DNA of 64,000 nucleotides from Elusimicrobia bacterium RIFOXYA2_FULL_47_53 (lineage in GTDB: Bacteria > Elusimicrobiota > Endomicrobiia > Endomicrobiales > XYA2-FULL-47-53), in the NCBI GenBank assembly GCA_001800315.1, contig MGVE01000009.1:11295-75294 (forward strand), given 5' to 3'. Below the pieces are notes generated by a model that did not search any database, was not told where the DNA came from, and saw only the letters and a program-made list of their open reading frames with translations. Positions within the stretch are counted from its first letter, which is position 1; each line of letters opens with the position of its first letter. Below are positions 8,025 to 47,119 of the stretch, piece after piece. A program made the translations under genes and the position numbers.

Positions 8025-9653
<1,629 letters not shown>

Positions 9654-9668
9654 TCACCTCAGGTAATT

Positions 9669-9956
9669 TTATTCTATTATTCCAAGGATATCGTCCTGAT
9701 GCATAATCAGGTGTTCAACATCCTCTATCTTAACTTCCGTGCCGGAATACTTTCCGTAAAGCACTTTGTCGCCGACCTTTAAATCCATGGGGATAAGCTT
9801 GCCGTCGTCTCCGATTTTTCCCTTTCCTACCGCAACCACTTCTCCTTCCTGCGGCTTTTCTTTGGCCGTGTCAGGAATAATAATTCCGCCTTTTTTGACT
9901 TCTTTCTGCTCCAGCGGTTTTACAAGAACCCTGTCTCCTAACGGTCTCATTTTCAT
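9669..9956 (-). CDS. groES: Co-chaperonin GroES
   Basis: Starts [14 protein letters not shown] at the ATG at 9956, preceded by GGAGGTGA. The track ORF has a spurious TTG-initiated extension. Confidence 0.97.
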
Positions 9957-43781: not shown

Positions 43782-45614
43782 ATGAACACAAGAATACTGT
43801 TTCTGGCCTATGTTTTACTATCCCATTTTGCCGCGACTGCGTGTTTCGCGTCGGAAGGCACGGCTGACGAAAAGGCGTTGCCGGCAACAAAGAGCTACGC
43901 CGGCGCGGGTATTCCGTTTAATATAGCCCATCCGAAAGAAGGCCAGCAGCTGCCATACCTGAAATCTTCCTTTGTTTTCGGTTCCGCCGATCCGCGCGGC
44001 AAACTCTACATTAACGGCGCGGAGACTCCAATCTTTGAAAGCGGCGGATTTCTTGCCATGGTTCCATATTCAACCGGAACTTTCTCAATAATCGCCGAAC
44101 TGAAAATATTTGAGAGCTCCAAAACAATTACAAGAACTATATTTGTGGCTCCCCCCGCGGAAACACCTCCCGCCTCGCCCTTAACCCTTATTTCGTCTAA
44201 ACCGGAAATGGACTTATCTCTCAGGACGGGAGAAACATTTATTATTGAATGCAGGGGCAGCCCCGGGGCTAATGCATTGGCCAAAATTAAAGGCTCCAAA
44301 GGAGTAATTAATTTAAGCGAAACGGCACCAGGCTCCGGGATTTACCGTTTTCTTTACAGGATTAAGCCGGGCGATAATTTCAAGGACTCCGAGATCTCCG
44401 TAACGCTTGAGAATAAAAAGGGCAGAAAATCCATTGTCGCCTCCGGAAAAATATCTAAACTTGAACCGGATTCGTTCTGGCAGGCGGAGGTTTCAGCCGA
44501 TAACGCTGTTGTCCGTTCCGGTTACGCTTTAACGCCTGCGGATAAGGCGGGATATGTTTTATTTCCTCCCCAGGGAACAAAGTTTCTTGTCACGGGCAGG
44601 CGCGGCCAGGAACTGGAAGTGCGTTTAAATCAGGCCCGCAGCGGCTGGATCGGAGAAACCGAGGTCAGGCCCGCCGGCCATAGCACCCCCAGGATAACCA
44701 GCGGCAATTTAATTGTCAGCTACCAAAAACCGAATTCGCTGCTGCGCTTATATCTTGGCGCGAAGCCGCCCTTTGAAGTTACGGCTTCTCCCGCGGAGGA
44801 CAAGATTGACATAAGGTTTTTCGGAGTGGTTTCAAACACGGACTGGATAAATTACGAGTCCACTTCTTCCATAATAAGTTTTGTTGAGTGGTTTCAGGAT
44901 GACACGGAGACATTCCGAGTGACACTGCACTTAAAAGAGACTAACTGGTGGGGCTACGACGCGAGGTTTGAAAACGGAAGTTTTGTTTTTGAGATCCGCC
45001 GGCCCGAAAAAATCCCGGCCGCTGATTCAACCCTAAAAGGCATTATGGTAGCCATTGACGCGGGACACGGGCCCGAAACAGGGGCCGTGGGCCCAACGGG
45101 CCTTGAAGAAAAAAATGTAAACCTTAGTATCGCGCTTTCGCTTGAAAAAATGCTTTTAGCACAGGGGGCGGAAGTAACTATGATTCGCAGAGGGAATGAA
45201 CCGGTAAGCCTTTACGATAGAATAAGAAAAGCCCAGAACATCAAAGCCGATATGCTGATAAGCATCCACAACAACGCGCTTCCCGAGGGGCAGAACCCGC
45301 TGGTAAAAAACGGGTTCGGCGCGTATTATTACTACCCGCAAAGTTTCGCGCTTGCCCAGGAGATTCATGATTCTCTGGCAAAAGCATTTTCTTCTTCATA
45401 TTCAAAGTACCCGCTGAGAGACGACGGACTTTACTACGGCAACCTCGCTCTCGCCAGGGTTCCGCAGATGCCTGCGGTGCTTGTTGAGTGCGCTTACATA
45501 ATCGTGCCGCGCGAGGAATCGCTGCTTAGAAACGCGGGATTTCAAAATGCCTGCGCGCAGGCTATAACTTCCGGTATAAAAAAGTTTGTCGCGGCTAAGA
45601 AAAAGCGGAAGTAA
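43782..45614 (+). CDS. N-acetylmuramoyl-L-alanine amidase (Amidase_3) with a long N-terminal domain
   Basis: 610 aa. Signal peptide and a C-terminal IMVAIDAGHGPETGAVGP...ADMLISIHNNA amidase_3 core. Confidence 0.88.
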   Translation: MNTRILFLAYVLLSHFAATACFASEGTADEKALPATKSYAGAGIPFNIAHPKEGQQLPYLKSSFVFGSADPRGKLYINGAETPIFESGGFLAMVPYSTGTFSIIAELKIFESSKTITRTIFVAPPAETPPASPLTLISSKPEMDLSLRTGETFIIECRGSPGANALAKIKGSKGVINLSETAPGSGIYRFLYRIKPGDNFKDSEISVTLENKKGRKSIVASGKISKLEPDSFWQAEVSADNAVVRSGYALTPADKAGYVLFPPQGTKFLVTGRRGQELEVRLNQARSGWIGETEVRPAGHSTPRITSGNLIVSYQKPNSLLRLYLGAKPPFEVTASPAEDKIDIRFFGVVSNTDWINYESTSSIISFVEWFQDDTETFRVTLHLKETNWWGYDARFENGSFVFEIRRPEKIPAADSTLKGIMVAIDAGHGPETGAVGPTGLEEKNVNLSIALSLEKMLLAQGAEVTMIRRGNEPVSLYDRIRKAQNIKADMLISIHNNALPEGQNPLVKNGFGAYYYYPQSFALAQEIHDSLAKAFSSSYSKYPLRDDGLYYGNLALARVPQMPAVLVECAYIIVPREESLLRNAGFQNACAQAITSGIKKFVAAKKKRK

Positions 45615-45696
45615 AAATAATTCGGATCACTCTGAAGGGTTTGGAAGGTTATATTTAAGGGACTTCCCTTTTTAGAAAGTCCCCAAAATACAAATT

Positions 45697-45741
45697 TTAT
45701 TTCTTTTTCGCTTTCTTTTTTGCTTTTTTCTTTGCAGCCAT
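45697..45741 (-). CDS. Candidate 14-codon micro-ORF MAAKKKAKKKAKKK
   Basis: ATG at complement(45739..45741), preceded by GGAGGTGAT with 8 nt between GGAGG and the ATG. Stop TAA at 45697-45699. Too short for the ORF track. Confidence 0.35.
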   Translation of the reverse strand: MAAKKKAKKKAKKK

Positions 45742-45775
45742 CCCGATCACCTCCCTGTTGTGACACTTATCGGAA

Positions 45776-45880
45776 ATAAAAAAGCCACGCAATAAAACTG
45801 CGCGGCCAATGCTATCGGGTTATTTTCGTCGTAATTATTTCTATTCGAAAAATTGTCATTCATGCCCCTTTCAAGTTTCT
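45776..45880 (-). ncRNA. Candidate ~105-nt small RNA (promoter-to-terminator unit)
   Basis: Promoter TTGTTA (45915-45910), N17, TATAAT (45892-45887), with a predicted start near 45880. Internal 6-bp stem 45846-45851/45823-45828. Terminator GCCGCGCA-GTTTTAT-TGCGTGGC (45806-45784) plus TTTTTTATTT. Confidence 0.45.
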
Positions 45881-45886
45881 GAAATA

Positions 45887-45915
45887 ATTATACATCATAT
45901 TTTTTAATATAACAA
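45887..45915 (-). promoter_or_regulatory. Sigma-70-type promoter of the candidate sRNA
   Basis: The minus strand reads TTGTTA-N17-TATAAT inside a very AT-rich stretch (45840-45960). Confidence 0.55.
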
Positions 45916-45984
45916 TAATTTATTTTAAATTTTTTATTTATTTTTTGTGTTTGCGCGCGAACCTGGGCAGTTCTCCGGTAAGAA

Positions 45985-46593
45985 GGCGGGGTTATTCTGA
46001 TTATAACTTTCTTTGAACGCGCAAAGATAGTAAGTAAAGAAACTTGCGACGCCTCACCATCTCGGACCGGCCGTCATTCCAGAAATGTTCTGTCTGGAAT
46101 CCAGAACAATGGCATTTTATTAATGACTCAAAGAAGTGGATCCCAGACTACTACCTCTGGGATGACGACACAAACTAGTCTGTCATCCCTACCCCCGATT
46201 GCGGCACTTGAGGGCAAACTCCAGCAGGGATCCAGAAAAACCTCTGGATACCAGCTTCTGCTGGTATGACGACACGAAGAAGTTCGCCGTTCACTTATAA
46301 CTTGAGTCAATTGAAAAAGTGTTTCAGGCCGTCTTTGCGAGGAGCGCAACGACGCGGCAATCTCGTCGTTCCCGACGGAAAAGCGAGATTGCTTCACCCT
46401 GCGGGCTCGCAATGACAGGGTCTAATTAAGGGTTTTTCAATTGACTCAACTTACAACTTACATCTTAAAACTTATTACTTAAAATATTCTGTCCGGAATC
46501 CACAAACGCCGTCATTGTGATCTTCCGCAGGGAGATAATATTCTCGTCGTTTGAGGAAAAACGAGACCCTTCACTTCGCTCAGGGTGACTTTA
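45985..46593. repeat. Stem-loop module mosaic, locus E (mostly inverted copies)
   Basis: 46071-46172 is the reverse complement of 5263-5365 (10 mismatches in ~101 nt by hand). 46228-46273, 46511-46551 and 46543-46589 are inverted copies of modules seen at loci B, D and F. Confidence 0.9.
46302..46449. mobile_element. 148-bp MITE-like unit bounded by 18-20-bp TIRs (TTGAGTCAATTGAAAAAG / GGGTTTTTCAATTGACTCAA)
   Basis: Left TIR 46302-46319, right TIR 46430-46449 (reverse complement, 1-2 mismatches). The interior carries hairpin modules and has no coding capacity. Confidence 0.6.
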
Positions 46594-46660
46594 TATGTCT
46601 GATGAAATCTTCACCGGCAGGCATGGGCTCTATCCGAGGATTAGGGGATCTGGAGTATGC

Positions 46661-46689
46661 TTGACTAAAACCTGCTATTTATATAGAAT
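46661..46689 (+). promoter_or_regulatory. Sigma-70-type promoter ~345 nt upstream of tRNA-Leu
   Basis: TTGACT (46661-46666), N17, TAGAAT (46684-46689). Confidence 0.55.
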
Positions 46690-46808
46690 CTCACAGTCAA
46701 GCCGAATTGAAAACTATAACAATATATGTATGCCGAGGTGTCCGCCACTACTGCGGGCGGATTTGCTTCACCAACTGCTTCCGCAGTTGGTTCCTTGAAT
46801 ATTATAGA

Positions 46809-46976
46809 TTGAGTCAATTGAAAAAGCCTGTTTCAGGAGCGAAATTTTGGGCTTTGTGCCGAGGCAAGGCGGCCGAAGCGAGCATATGCTCCACGGAGTA
46901 TATGTAAACTGAGGACAACGAAGCCGCAGGCCAAAGGCCGAAATTGCAGCCCGAAAGAGGTTTTTCAACTGACTCA
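46809..46976. mobile_element. 168-bp MITE-like unit with the same TIR family
   Basis: Left TIR TTGAGTCAATTGAAAAAGCC (46809-46828), right TIR GAGGTTTTTCAACTGACTCA (46957-46976). The first ~30 nt match unit 46302-46449. Confidence 0.6.
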
Positions 46977-47032
46977 GAGAAGTTACAGTGTGCGGTTATC
47001 TGACAAGCTAATCAAACAAAAAATAGTTTATT

Positions 47033-47119
47033 GCCGAGGTGGCGGAACTGGCAGACGCGTCAGACTCAAAATCTGAAGTCACTTTGGGTGGCGTGTGGGT
47101 TCAACTCCCACCCTCGGCA
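47033..47119 (+). tRNA. tRNA-Leu (anticodon CAA)
   Basis: Hand-folded cloverleaf: acceptor GCCGAGG/CCTCGGC plus A; anticodon stem TCAGA/TCTGA with loop CTCAAAA; long variable arm; T arm GTGGG-TTCAACT-CCCAC. No encoded CCA. Followed by T7. Confidence 0.92.

Follow-up and report, generated by a model that had tools for sequence, protein, structure and literature searches.

Very short, highly basic ribosomal proteins of about the size of a single helix are usually missed by annotation. Borrelia bS22 was one such unannotated protein, 30 amino acids (aa) long and 61% Lys/Arg; it is apparently essential and highly transcribed, and it occupies the 16S h2/h27/h44/h45 pocket in the same way as eL41 and mS38 (Pfam DUF1713, AURKAIP1/COX24). 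Its discoverers expect more proteins of this kind in other bacteria, and in cyanobacteria a small basic protein, bS24, that adjoins the anti-Shine–Dalgarno sequence has recently been described. Here we describe a still shorter coding unit, a 14-codon oligolysine micro-open reading frame (micro-ORF) on the minus strand of a 64,000-nucleotide (nt) stretch of contig MGVE01000009.1 from Elusimicrobia bacterium RIFOXYA2_FULL_47_53 (that whole stretch, 64 kb, is called the window below). We consider it very probable that this ORF is a genuine gene that is translated and belongs to a widespread class, and we weigh what its product might do.

Other described systems also bear comparison. The proteins bTHX (Thermus, chloroplast) and bL37 (mycobacteria) are basic, lineage-restricted and ~24–26 aa long, and fill cavities in the rRNA. 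The leader peptides encoded by hisL, pheL, thrL and leuL are 14–16 codons long, are dominated by one amino acid and are followed by a terminator-type hairpin. Runs of Lys codons occur at the dnaX frameshift signal (A_AAA_AAG) and in poly(A) sequences on which ribosomes slide. Finally, gene finders do call the Lys/Ala-rich H1-like, HU and SWIB proteins, which are all at least 50 aa long and in many cases contain a folded domain. The micro-ORF resembles each of these in some respects and differs from it in others.

The minus strand of the locus reads CAGGGAGGTGATCGGG-ATG GCT GCA AAG AAA AAA GCA AAA AAG AAA GCG AAA AAG AAA TAA, exactly the sequence for which the initial annotation of this stretch had proposed a polylysine ORF with an ideal ribosome-binding site. 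Translation of its 14 sense codons gives MAAKKKAKKKAKKK, with 9 Lys, 4 Ala and no Arg, hydrophobic residues being limited to Ala and Met. To place its Shine–Dalgarno sequence (SD, GGGAGGTGAT) in context, we took a census of all start codons in the window preceded by a match of at least 7 nt to the anti-SD complement. The window has a single copy of the 9-mer GGAGGTGAT. A comparable SD was found only at groES (start 9956, AGGAGGTGA) and groEL (start 9647, GAGGTGAT), while the other 45 large ORFs of the window match the anti-SD complement over at most 6 nt. This SD had been called the best in the window; it is indeed so, with groES about tied. Since SDs of this quality are seen only at the micro-ORF, groES and groEL, we take them to mark the most highly expressed genes in this genome.

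Such a locus might be a functionless ORF that arose by chance in A-rich intergenic DNA, and in favour of this the ORF is a mere 45 nt long and no close relative of this genome was found. Against it, shuffling the window gives an expectation of 0.00 for the codon pattern (AAR)3-GCN-(AAR)3, whose one occurrence there is the micro-ORF, the SD is unique in the window, and genome and metagenome scans recovered more than 100 analogous SD-led micro-ORFs in other phyla. Chance is thus a very improbable explanation.

As 14 residues are too few for a protein search, we scanned for a nucleotide pattern instead, using one genome per species (GTDB) and the first ten codons, ATG-GCN-GCN-(AAR)3-GCN-(AAR)3, with no SD required. 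At least 120 loci match this pattern. Among the matches listed, 89 of 120 are ORFs of 11–30 codons that stop directly after the Lys run, and these micro-ORFs come from more than 12 phyla, including bacteria of the candidate phyla radiation (CPR) and DPANN archaea. The carriers, again among the matches listed, are Acidobacteriota, Binatia, Nitrospirota, Alpha-, Beta- and Gammaproteobacteria, Verrucomicrobiota, Planctomycetota, Gemmatimonadota, Marinimicrobia, Eisenbacteria, Vulcanimicrobiota, Melainabacteria, Bdellovibrionota, four CPR phyla and two DPANN archaea. Nine Acidobacteriota from the same set encode MAAKKKAKKKR. Other peptides of the class are MAAKKKAKKKAKKKKK (Binatia), MAAKKKAKKKAKKKAKKK and ...ATKKKATKKK (Nitrospirota), MAAKKKAKKKAAKKKAAKKK and its variants (Burkholderiales) and MAAKKKAKKKAAKKKK (Rhodospirillales, Acetobacteraceae). 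The window ORF, with its MAAKKKAKKK start, its length within the 11–30-codon range and its stop directly after the Lys-rich run, falls squarely within the class.

A scan of metagenomes, in which GGAGGTG as well as the ORF start was required, gave 60 loci and added 26 micro-ORFs of 11–22 codons. On one metagenome contig (L177, 764–917) two copies of the micro-gene lie in tandem, both encoding MAAKKKAKKKR, 110 nt apart and each with a strong SD. Viral contigs served as a control: there, the same 30-nt pattern heads ordinary proteins of 48–451 aa, and the three short viral matches have no SD. In the initial annotation, a lack of conservation of ORF and SD in relatives was to count as refutation. 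The outcome favours a functional ORF at the level of the class, whose SD-led members with the same first ten residues recur across phyla; no close relative of the locus itself was found.

Several features of the class point to translation and to selection on the peptide. An SD match of at least 5 nt precedes 60 of 90 micro-ORFs, compared with 10% of control ATGs from the same loci. Substitutions were counted pairwise within clades and from codon 11 onward only, outside the search pattern; there, 109 differences are synonymous and 20 non-synonymous, in a count not corrected for ancestry, and each of the latter exchanges one of Ala, Thr, Val, Gly and Ser for another. The acidobacterial peptide ends in an Arg that is spelled AGG, AGA or CGG. 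The earlier view that a lack of function is hard to reconcile with such an SD is therefore strongly supported, both by the recurrence of SD-led polylysine micro-ORFs across phyla and by their synonymous drift.

The placement of AAA and AAG codons bears on a different proposal, namely that the ORF is a ribosome-sliding or -1 frameshift device of the poly(A) or dnaX type. The window ORF does hold one in-frame A_AAA_AAG heptamer, formed by GCA AAA AAG. Sliding, however, needs ~11 or more consecutive A residues, and the longest A-run is 6 in the window ORF (9.0 expected; P = 0.11 on its own) and at most 9 in all 104 distinct ORFs of the class. In 90 of these 104 it is below random expectation, the mean being 5.45 against 6.76 expected (Wilcoxon p = 7e-16, shared ancestry not corrected). 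Short A-runs across the class are what selection for accurate decoding would produce, and a sliding device would need the reverse. Nor is the heptamer conserved in the class, and no meaningful alternative frame is present. A dnaX-type -1 frameshift was rejected for the window ORF, where the hairpin lies ~40 nt past the heptamer (against 5–8 nt) and the -1 frame enters the amidase gene in antisense.

A passive reporter of read-through at an upstream terminator, also among the roles first suggested, would fit the terminator just upstream of the ORF and the hairpin downstream. It found no support, as the other clades examined have promoters of their own and no terminator was seen in their leaders. 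Together, sliding, frameshifting and read-through reporting hold a barely credible share of the explanations.

The coordinates of the unit are given in Table 1. Judging by the position of the promoter, transcription would start near 45880. The upstream terminator described in the initial annotation is real, an 11-pair hairpin followed by TTTTTTATTT that ends ~25 nt before the SD. Reading of the sequence revealed no convincing second promoter between this terminator and the SD, and on this single sequence the micro-ORF would therefore be reached only by read-through. Two candidate ORFs overlap in the leader. The shorter, MTIFRIEIITTKITR, is Ile/Thr-rich, has GGGG 5 nt 5' of its ATG and ends in a TAG stop 4 nt before the terminator stem. 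The longer, of 38 codons, has a poor ribosome-binding site (GGGG just 1 nt from the ATG) and, as previously noted, ends within the SD of the micro-ORF; this geometry makes translational coupling between the two possible. More speculatively, the arrangement of the two leader ORFs would permit translation-coupled antitermination or reinitiation of the pyrBI type.

Table 1. Features of the oligolysine micro-gene locus and of the reference genes in the window
Feature	Coordinates	Strand	Details
Shine–Dalgarno sequence GGGAGGTGAT	45755..45746	-	10 nt; 4-nt spacer to ATG
Micro-ORF	45741..45697	-	ATG 45741..45739, 13 further codons, TAA 45699..45697
Sigma-70-like promoter TTGTTA-17 nt-TATAAT	45915..45887	-	10/12 matches; best of 2.5 kb scanned
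Leader (5' untranslated region), ~139 nt	45880..45742	-	extent estimated from promoter position
Candidate 15-codon leader ORF MTIFRIEIITTKITR	45859..45812	-	translation of one sequence; Ile/Thr-rich
38-codon ORF	45863..45747	-	overlaps 15-codon ORF; spans terminator; TGA 45749..45747 within SD
Intrinsic-terminator-like hairpin and T-run	45807..45773	-	stem 45807..45783, 11 pairs (6 G-C), then TTTTTTATTT
Hairpin GGGGACUUUC-UAAAAA-GGGAAGUCCC	45684..45659	both	12 nt past stop; stable in minimum-energy and centroid folds
N-acetylmuramoyl-L-alanine amidase gene	43782..45614	+	next downstream gene, converging
groES / groEL	9647-9956	-	internal calibration: strong SD = highly expressed gene in this genome

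Downstream, the hairpin past the stop codon is real, as first described, but a clean U-tract is absent on both strands; the amidase gene has this hairpin at its 3' end too, and it is likely to be a two-way transcript end. No further gene follows on the strand of the micro-ORF, again as the initial annotation had it, the amidase gene converging on it. The amidase matches a partial protein of 'Elusimicrobia bacterium RIFOXYB1_FULL_48_9' at 100% identity, while its next-best homologues are only ~48% identical.

The same layout recurs in the class. Alignments show near-consensus promoters kept within clades and lying at a similar distance from the ATG as in the window: CTTGACA-17-TATACA in Acidobacteriota, TTGCA...TAGAAT in Burkholderiales, a T-rich upstream element followed by TTGACA in Binatia, and TTGACA promoters in Alphaproteobacteria and in three low-G+C metagenome relatives. 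Leaders of ~60–170 nt are conserved inside each clade, and 52 of 90 members have, by a simple criterion, an intrinsic terminator no more than ~50 nt past the stop. Flanking genes are kept within clades and differ between them, often lying on the opposite strand, and no partner gene is common to the whole class among the clades compared. The window unit, with its promoter, leader, SD, ORF, hairpin soon after the stop and converging neighbour, fits this layout and likewise lacks a conserved partner gene; what sets it apart from the other clades examined is the terminator-like hairpin in its leader. From its architecture, the oligolysine micro-gene reads as a free-standing gene.

Neighbouring genes differ accordingly from one clade to the next. 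In Acidobacteriota they are two opposite-strand genes, one for a von Willebrand factor A (vWA) protein and one for RmuC. In ten Nitrospirota loci the micro-ORF lies 45–59 nt after a conserved gene pair encoding proteins of 112 aa and ~161 aa, which from their sequences look like a nucleotidyltransferase/HEPN toxin–antitoxin pair. The Binatia micro-gene lies ~290 nt before a thioredoxin-like (TlpA) gene and ccdA. In Burkholderiales the unit most often faces a converging pair of genes for an anti-sigma factor and an extracytoplasmic function (ECF) sigma factor.

Two gene contexts speak for a reading in which translation itself is the signal, a lysine leader peptide reporting the supply of Lys-tRNA or lysine and so altering termination, stability or the activity of a 3' small RNA. 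In Burkholderiales, 12 of 15 loci lie a few hundred nt downstream of, and on the same strand as, lysA (diaminopimelate decarboxylase, identified by eye from sequence), a link with a 65%-lysine peptide that may be functional or mere synteny. In CPR bacteria, Lys-rich ORFs of 12–30 codons stand 72–259 nt upstream of secA in seven loci, with a terminator-like hairpin between the two in five of the seven; one of these ORFs also follows the RNase P RNA. Here the ORF may act as a leader or attenuator for secA. The form of the window ORF is also that of hisL, pheL or thrL, with 9 of its 14 codons for one amino acid, a hairpin after it and, in its leader, a terminator.

What distinguishes the micro-gene from such leaders is that no biosynthetic operon follows. 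Opposite-strand genes come next in the window, in Acidobacteriota and in nearly all Burkholderiales, leaving nothing to attenuate, and partner genes vary by clade. A terminator of its own comes directly after the stop, and neither an antiterminator pairing nor, in the predicted folds of the single window sequence, any terminator/antiterminator alternative involving the ORF was found. The non-Lys positions and the C-terminal Arg are kept at the level of the peptide, which a sensor of codon runs would not need. Lysine pathways, moreover, are classically controlled by the L-box riboswitch or LysR and not by leader peptides. Of the two halves of the proposed role as a Lys-tRNA or ribosome-sliding sensor, sliding is disfavoured by the short A-runs, and a Lys-tRNA sensor would have no regulated gene downstream in the window or in most clades. 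We regard lysine sensing as improbable, if a good deal less so than sliding.

The RNA itself could instead be the product, an A-rich small RNA or protein sponge, with (ARN)n for the distal face of Hfq or for binding S1, and the ORF either tolerated or serving to load ribosomes. Formally, (AAR)n is an (A-R-N)n repeat, the layout of promoter, ~150–250 nt and terminator is that of a small-RNA gene, and structured flanks are conserved within clades. The window transcript also folds better than shuffles (z = -3.3 for 45885..45650 and z = -2.0 for 45830..45730). Such an RNA leaves unexplained why an ATG, a well-spaced SD and an in-frame stop after the run are all kept across phyla. The spelling of Arg as AGG, AGA or CGG points to selection on the peptide, as does the restriction of interrupting codons to small residues, and the ORFs form a continuum of length up to real Lys/Ala-rich proteins. 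No Rfam family matches, and the class is present in CPR bacteria and DPANN archaea, many of which lack Hfq. An RNA product is accordingly a poor candidate, placed below lysine sensing and above sliding or chance.

The most elaborate RNA structure was seen in Binatia, where an alignment of eleven RNAs contains three nested long-range helices that join the 5' and 3' untranslated regions (UTRs). SD-like AUGGGAGGGUU pairs with GCCCUCC, and in another of the three the true SD, AAGGAGG, pairs through CCUCCUU with anti-SD-like CCCUCCUU. All three helices are invariant and hence have no covariation support, compensatory changes being confined to a 3' hairpin. Sequestration of the SD was tried as a general principle and rejected, accessibility being 0.41 against 0.42 with shuffled flanks over 114 members. 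It was likewise rejected for the window. The RNA there is predicted to pair UAUUUCC (45778..45772) with GGAGGUG (45754..45748) and CCCGAU (45819..45814) with AUCGGG (45747..45742), yet accessibility is 0.31 against 0.46 +/- 0.14 and 5 of 30 shuffles are as closed, a difference that is not significant.

As for the peptide itself, its sequence resembles that of the Lys/Ala-rich proteins. A continuous series with the same first ten residues leads from 11 aa through K/A/T/V/P peptides of 20–57 residues to Lys/Ala-rich proteins of 70–200 residues, and the MAAKKKAKKK start also heads HU-family (PF00216) and SWIB-domain (PF02201) proteins. We therefore read the module as a general-purpose polycationic tail for binding nucleic acids, one that in the micro-gene would make up the whole product. 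With the H1-like, HU and SWIB proteins it shares this module, the K/A/(T,V,P) composition and a place in a length series that extends to 36–200 aa. Whereas those proteins are larger, the tail of 11–20 aa has its own promoter, conserved leader and terminator. By the same token the window peptide has the composition and N-terminal module of the Lys/Ala-rich H1-like proteins, but at 14 aa not the size of these proteins, which bind and compact DNA and have tens to hundreds of residues.

A narrower possibility is that the peptide is a lineage-variable ribosomal micro-protein, lodged in an rRNA pocket in the manner of bS22/eL41/mS38, bTHX or bL37, with an autogenously acting leader. Tiny basic ribosomal proteins such as Borrelia bS22 likewise escape annotation and more are predicted, the new bS24 sits next to the anti-SD in cyanobacteria, and the Binatia RNA carries both SD-like and anti-SD-like elements. 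The SD as strong as those of groES and groEL, the near-consensus promoters and the clade-conserved leaders would also suit a ribosomal protein. The sequence, though, is unlike that of bS22. The bS22 sequences in the PDB are 33 aa long, with an Arg/Lys mix, His and conserved hydrophobic positions, where the window peptide has Lys and Ala; bS22, a bent helix, measures 30–33 aa and eL41 ~24–25 aa, against 14 aa in the window and 11–30 aa in the class. Membership of bS22 was rejected, given that no family profile matches, that the 14 residues include no Arg and that by eye only the charge is common with the PDB sequences.

Similarly, bTHX and bL37 are specific in sequence and free of repeats, contain Arg, Gly, Trp and Tyr, and are each found in one lineage, whereas the oligolysine class spans many phyla with near-identical low-complexity sequence. 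Lengths that vary from 11 to 30 aa between clades and a near-pure K/A composition argue against a fit to a ribosomal pocket, Pfam was negative for members of 22–57 aa, none of the members examined has a ribosomal-protein operon context, the same module heads DNA-binding proteins, and the Binatia helices lack covariation. The suggestion of a basic peptide of the Thx/bS22/bL37 type therefore comes nearest to our own explanation as an analogy, the sequence features of bS22 being absent. A ribosomal micro-protein proper we consider unlikely, if the least so of the alternatives raised here. As bS22 membership fails, the length is variable and the composition is nearly pure K/A, we commit ourselves only to a nucleic-acid-binding polycation.

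Searches of databases and literature yielded no earlier record of these peptides. At Rfam gathering thresholds the 64 kb window contains only a tRNA-Leu; a sensitive Rfam scan of 45550..47050 gave chance-level matches only, and in 18 loci of the class Rfam found nothing at the element and tRNA, rRNA and RNase P elsewhere. Members of 22–57 aa have no Pfam match at E <= 10 (the 14-mer is too short for the tool), and members of 20–57 aa matched nothing in NCBIfam or a PDB sequence search; these family-search negatives are weak evidence because of the bias filters of HMMER. By exact look-up, nine class members and the 31-residue extension of the window ORF are all absent from a collection of ~15 billion proteins. 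In the literature, neither the peptide strings nor encoded oligolysine micro-genes are described in the searchable, incomplete library used, and an earlier description elsewhere is possible. The oligolysine micro-gene class is thus listed by none of the protein and RNA databases searched. It amounts to a Lys/Ala-rich polycationic protein module cut down to a stand-alone micro-gene, with the unannotated basic ribosomal micro-proteins as its closest functional counterparts.

Taken together, our preferred explanation, to which we give a probability of roughly 0.55, is that the effect comes from the free peptide, through binding to nucleic acid. Transcription would run from the sigma-70-type promoter through the leader and its terminator-like hairpin, expression in this genome probably depending on read-through of that terminator. 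Ribosomes would load at the near-perfect SD to make MAAKKKAKKKAKKK, from which Met is expected to be removed before Ala, giving a 13-residue peptide with nine lysines, and the transcript would end at the hairpin shared with the amidase gene. The functional product would then be the free peptide, rather than the act of translation or the RNA alone. It would be the minimal diffusible form of the Lys/Ala-rich polycationic module of the HU-type, SWIB-type and H1-like proteins, attaching electrostatically and in trans to RNA, whether ribosomal or not, or to nucleoid DNA. We infer translation in vivo, stability of the peptide, nucleic-acid binding and the actual target from the signals described above.

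A number of points weigh against this explanation. Members of the class were picked out by a pattern in which the first ten residues are fixed, and low-complexity peptides can arise convergently, so that common descent of the class is unproven; the substitution and A-run counts, as stated, take no account of ancestry. Synteny by way of the 48%-identical amidase homologues is absent, three loci showing a converging amino-acid permease gene in an unrelated order, and the metagenome scan contained no near-identical locus, so the comparison stays at the level of the class. A same-strand gene follows in CPR bacteria (secA) and in Binatia (TlpA/CcdA), where a cis-regulatory role is possible. Unless it is bound, a peptide of 13 residues may not last long, and the (AAR)n RNA could in its own right serve as a platform for proteins.

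The DNA upstream of the micro-gene holds repeats of other kinds. Four copies of a 24–28 nt repeat, TTATAACTTGAGTCAATTGAAAAAG, lie at 46295–46456 and 46802–46976, within the gene-free stretch of ~1 kb that separates the micro-gene from the tRNA-Leu. They form two inverted pairs ~160–175 nt apart and resemble the terminal inverted repeats of two small elements like miniature inverted-repeat transposable elements (MITEs). At 46060–46200 there are palindromic elements of the GTCATYCC...GGRATGAC type, for example cgtcattccagaaatgttctgtctggaatccag and gtcatcccagaggtagtagtctgggat, which resemble the 'GTCATTCC...GGAATCC' repeats, similar to repetitive extragenic palindromes (REPs), that are common in some uncultured lineages; Rfam matches there are weak and at chance level.

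In its widest form, which we put forward tentatively and hold to be less likely true than false, our proposal is that oligolysine micro-genes encode ancient or repeatedly invented, highly expressed polycations of 10–20 residues, a ribosomally made counterpart of the polyamines. They might represent either an unrecognised ribosomal or RNA-associated peptide of universal type or a tunable counter-ion for RNA and DNA, with synthesis placed under clade-specific structured leaders, here a read-through terminator and in Binatia the helices that mimic SD and anti-SD pairing. Genes of 11–20 codons fall under the cut-off of every gene caller, a K/A-only peptide is invisible to trypsin-based proteomics, and the low-complexity filters of BLAST and HMMER drop it from searches. 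The class is present in groups with cultured members, among them Terriglobia, Burkholderiales, Acetobacteraceae and Gemmatimonas, and is directly testable there. If the micro-ORFs are translated as their signals indicate, many phyla, including the poorly studied Elusimicrobia, Binatia, Nitrospirota, CPR bacteria and DPANN archaea, would possess a polycationic peptide, strongly expressed, that no model of ribosome composition, nucleoid organisation, RNA stability or the balance of cations and polyamines has ever taken into account.

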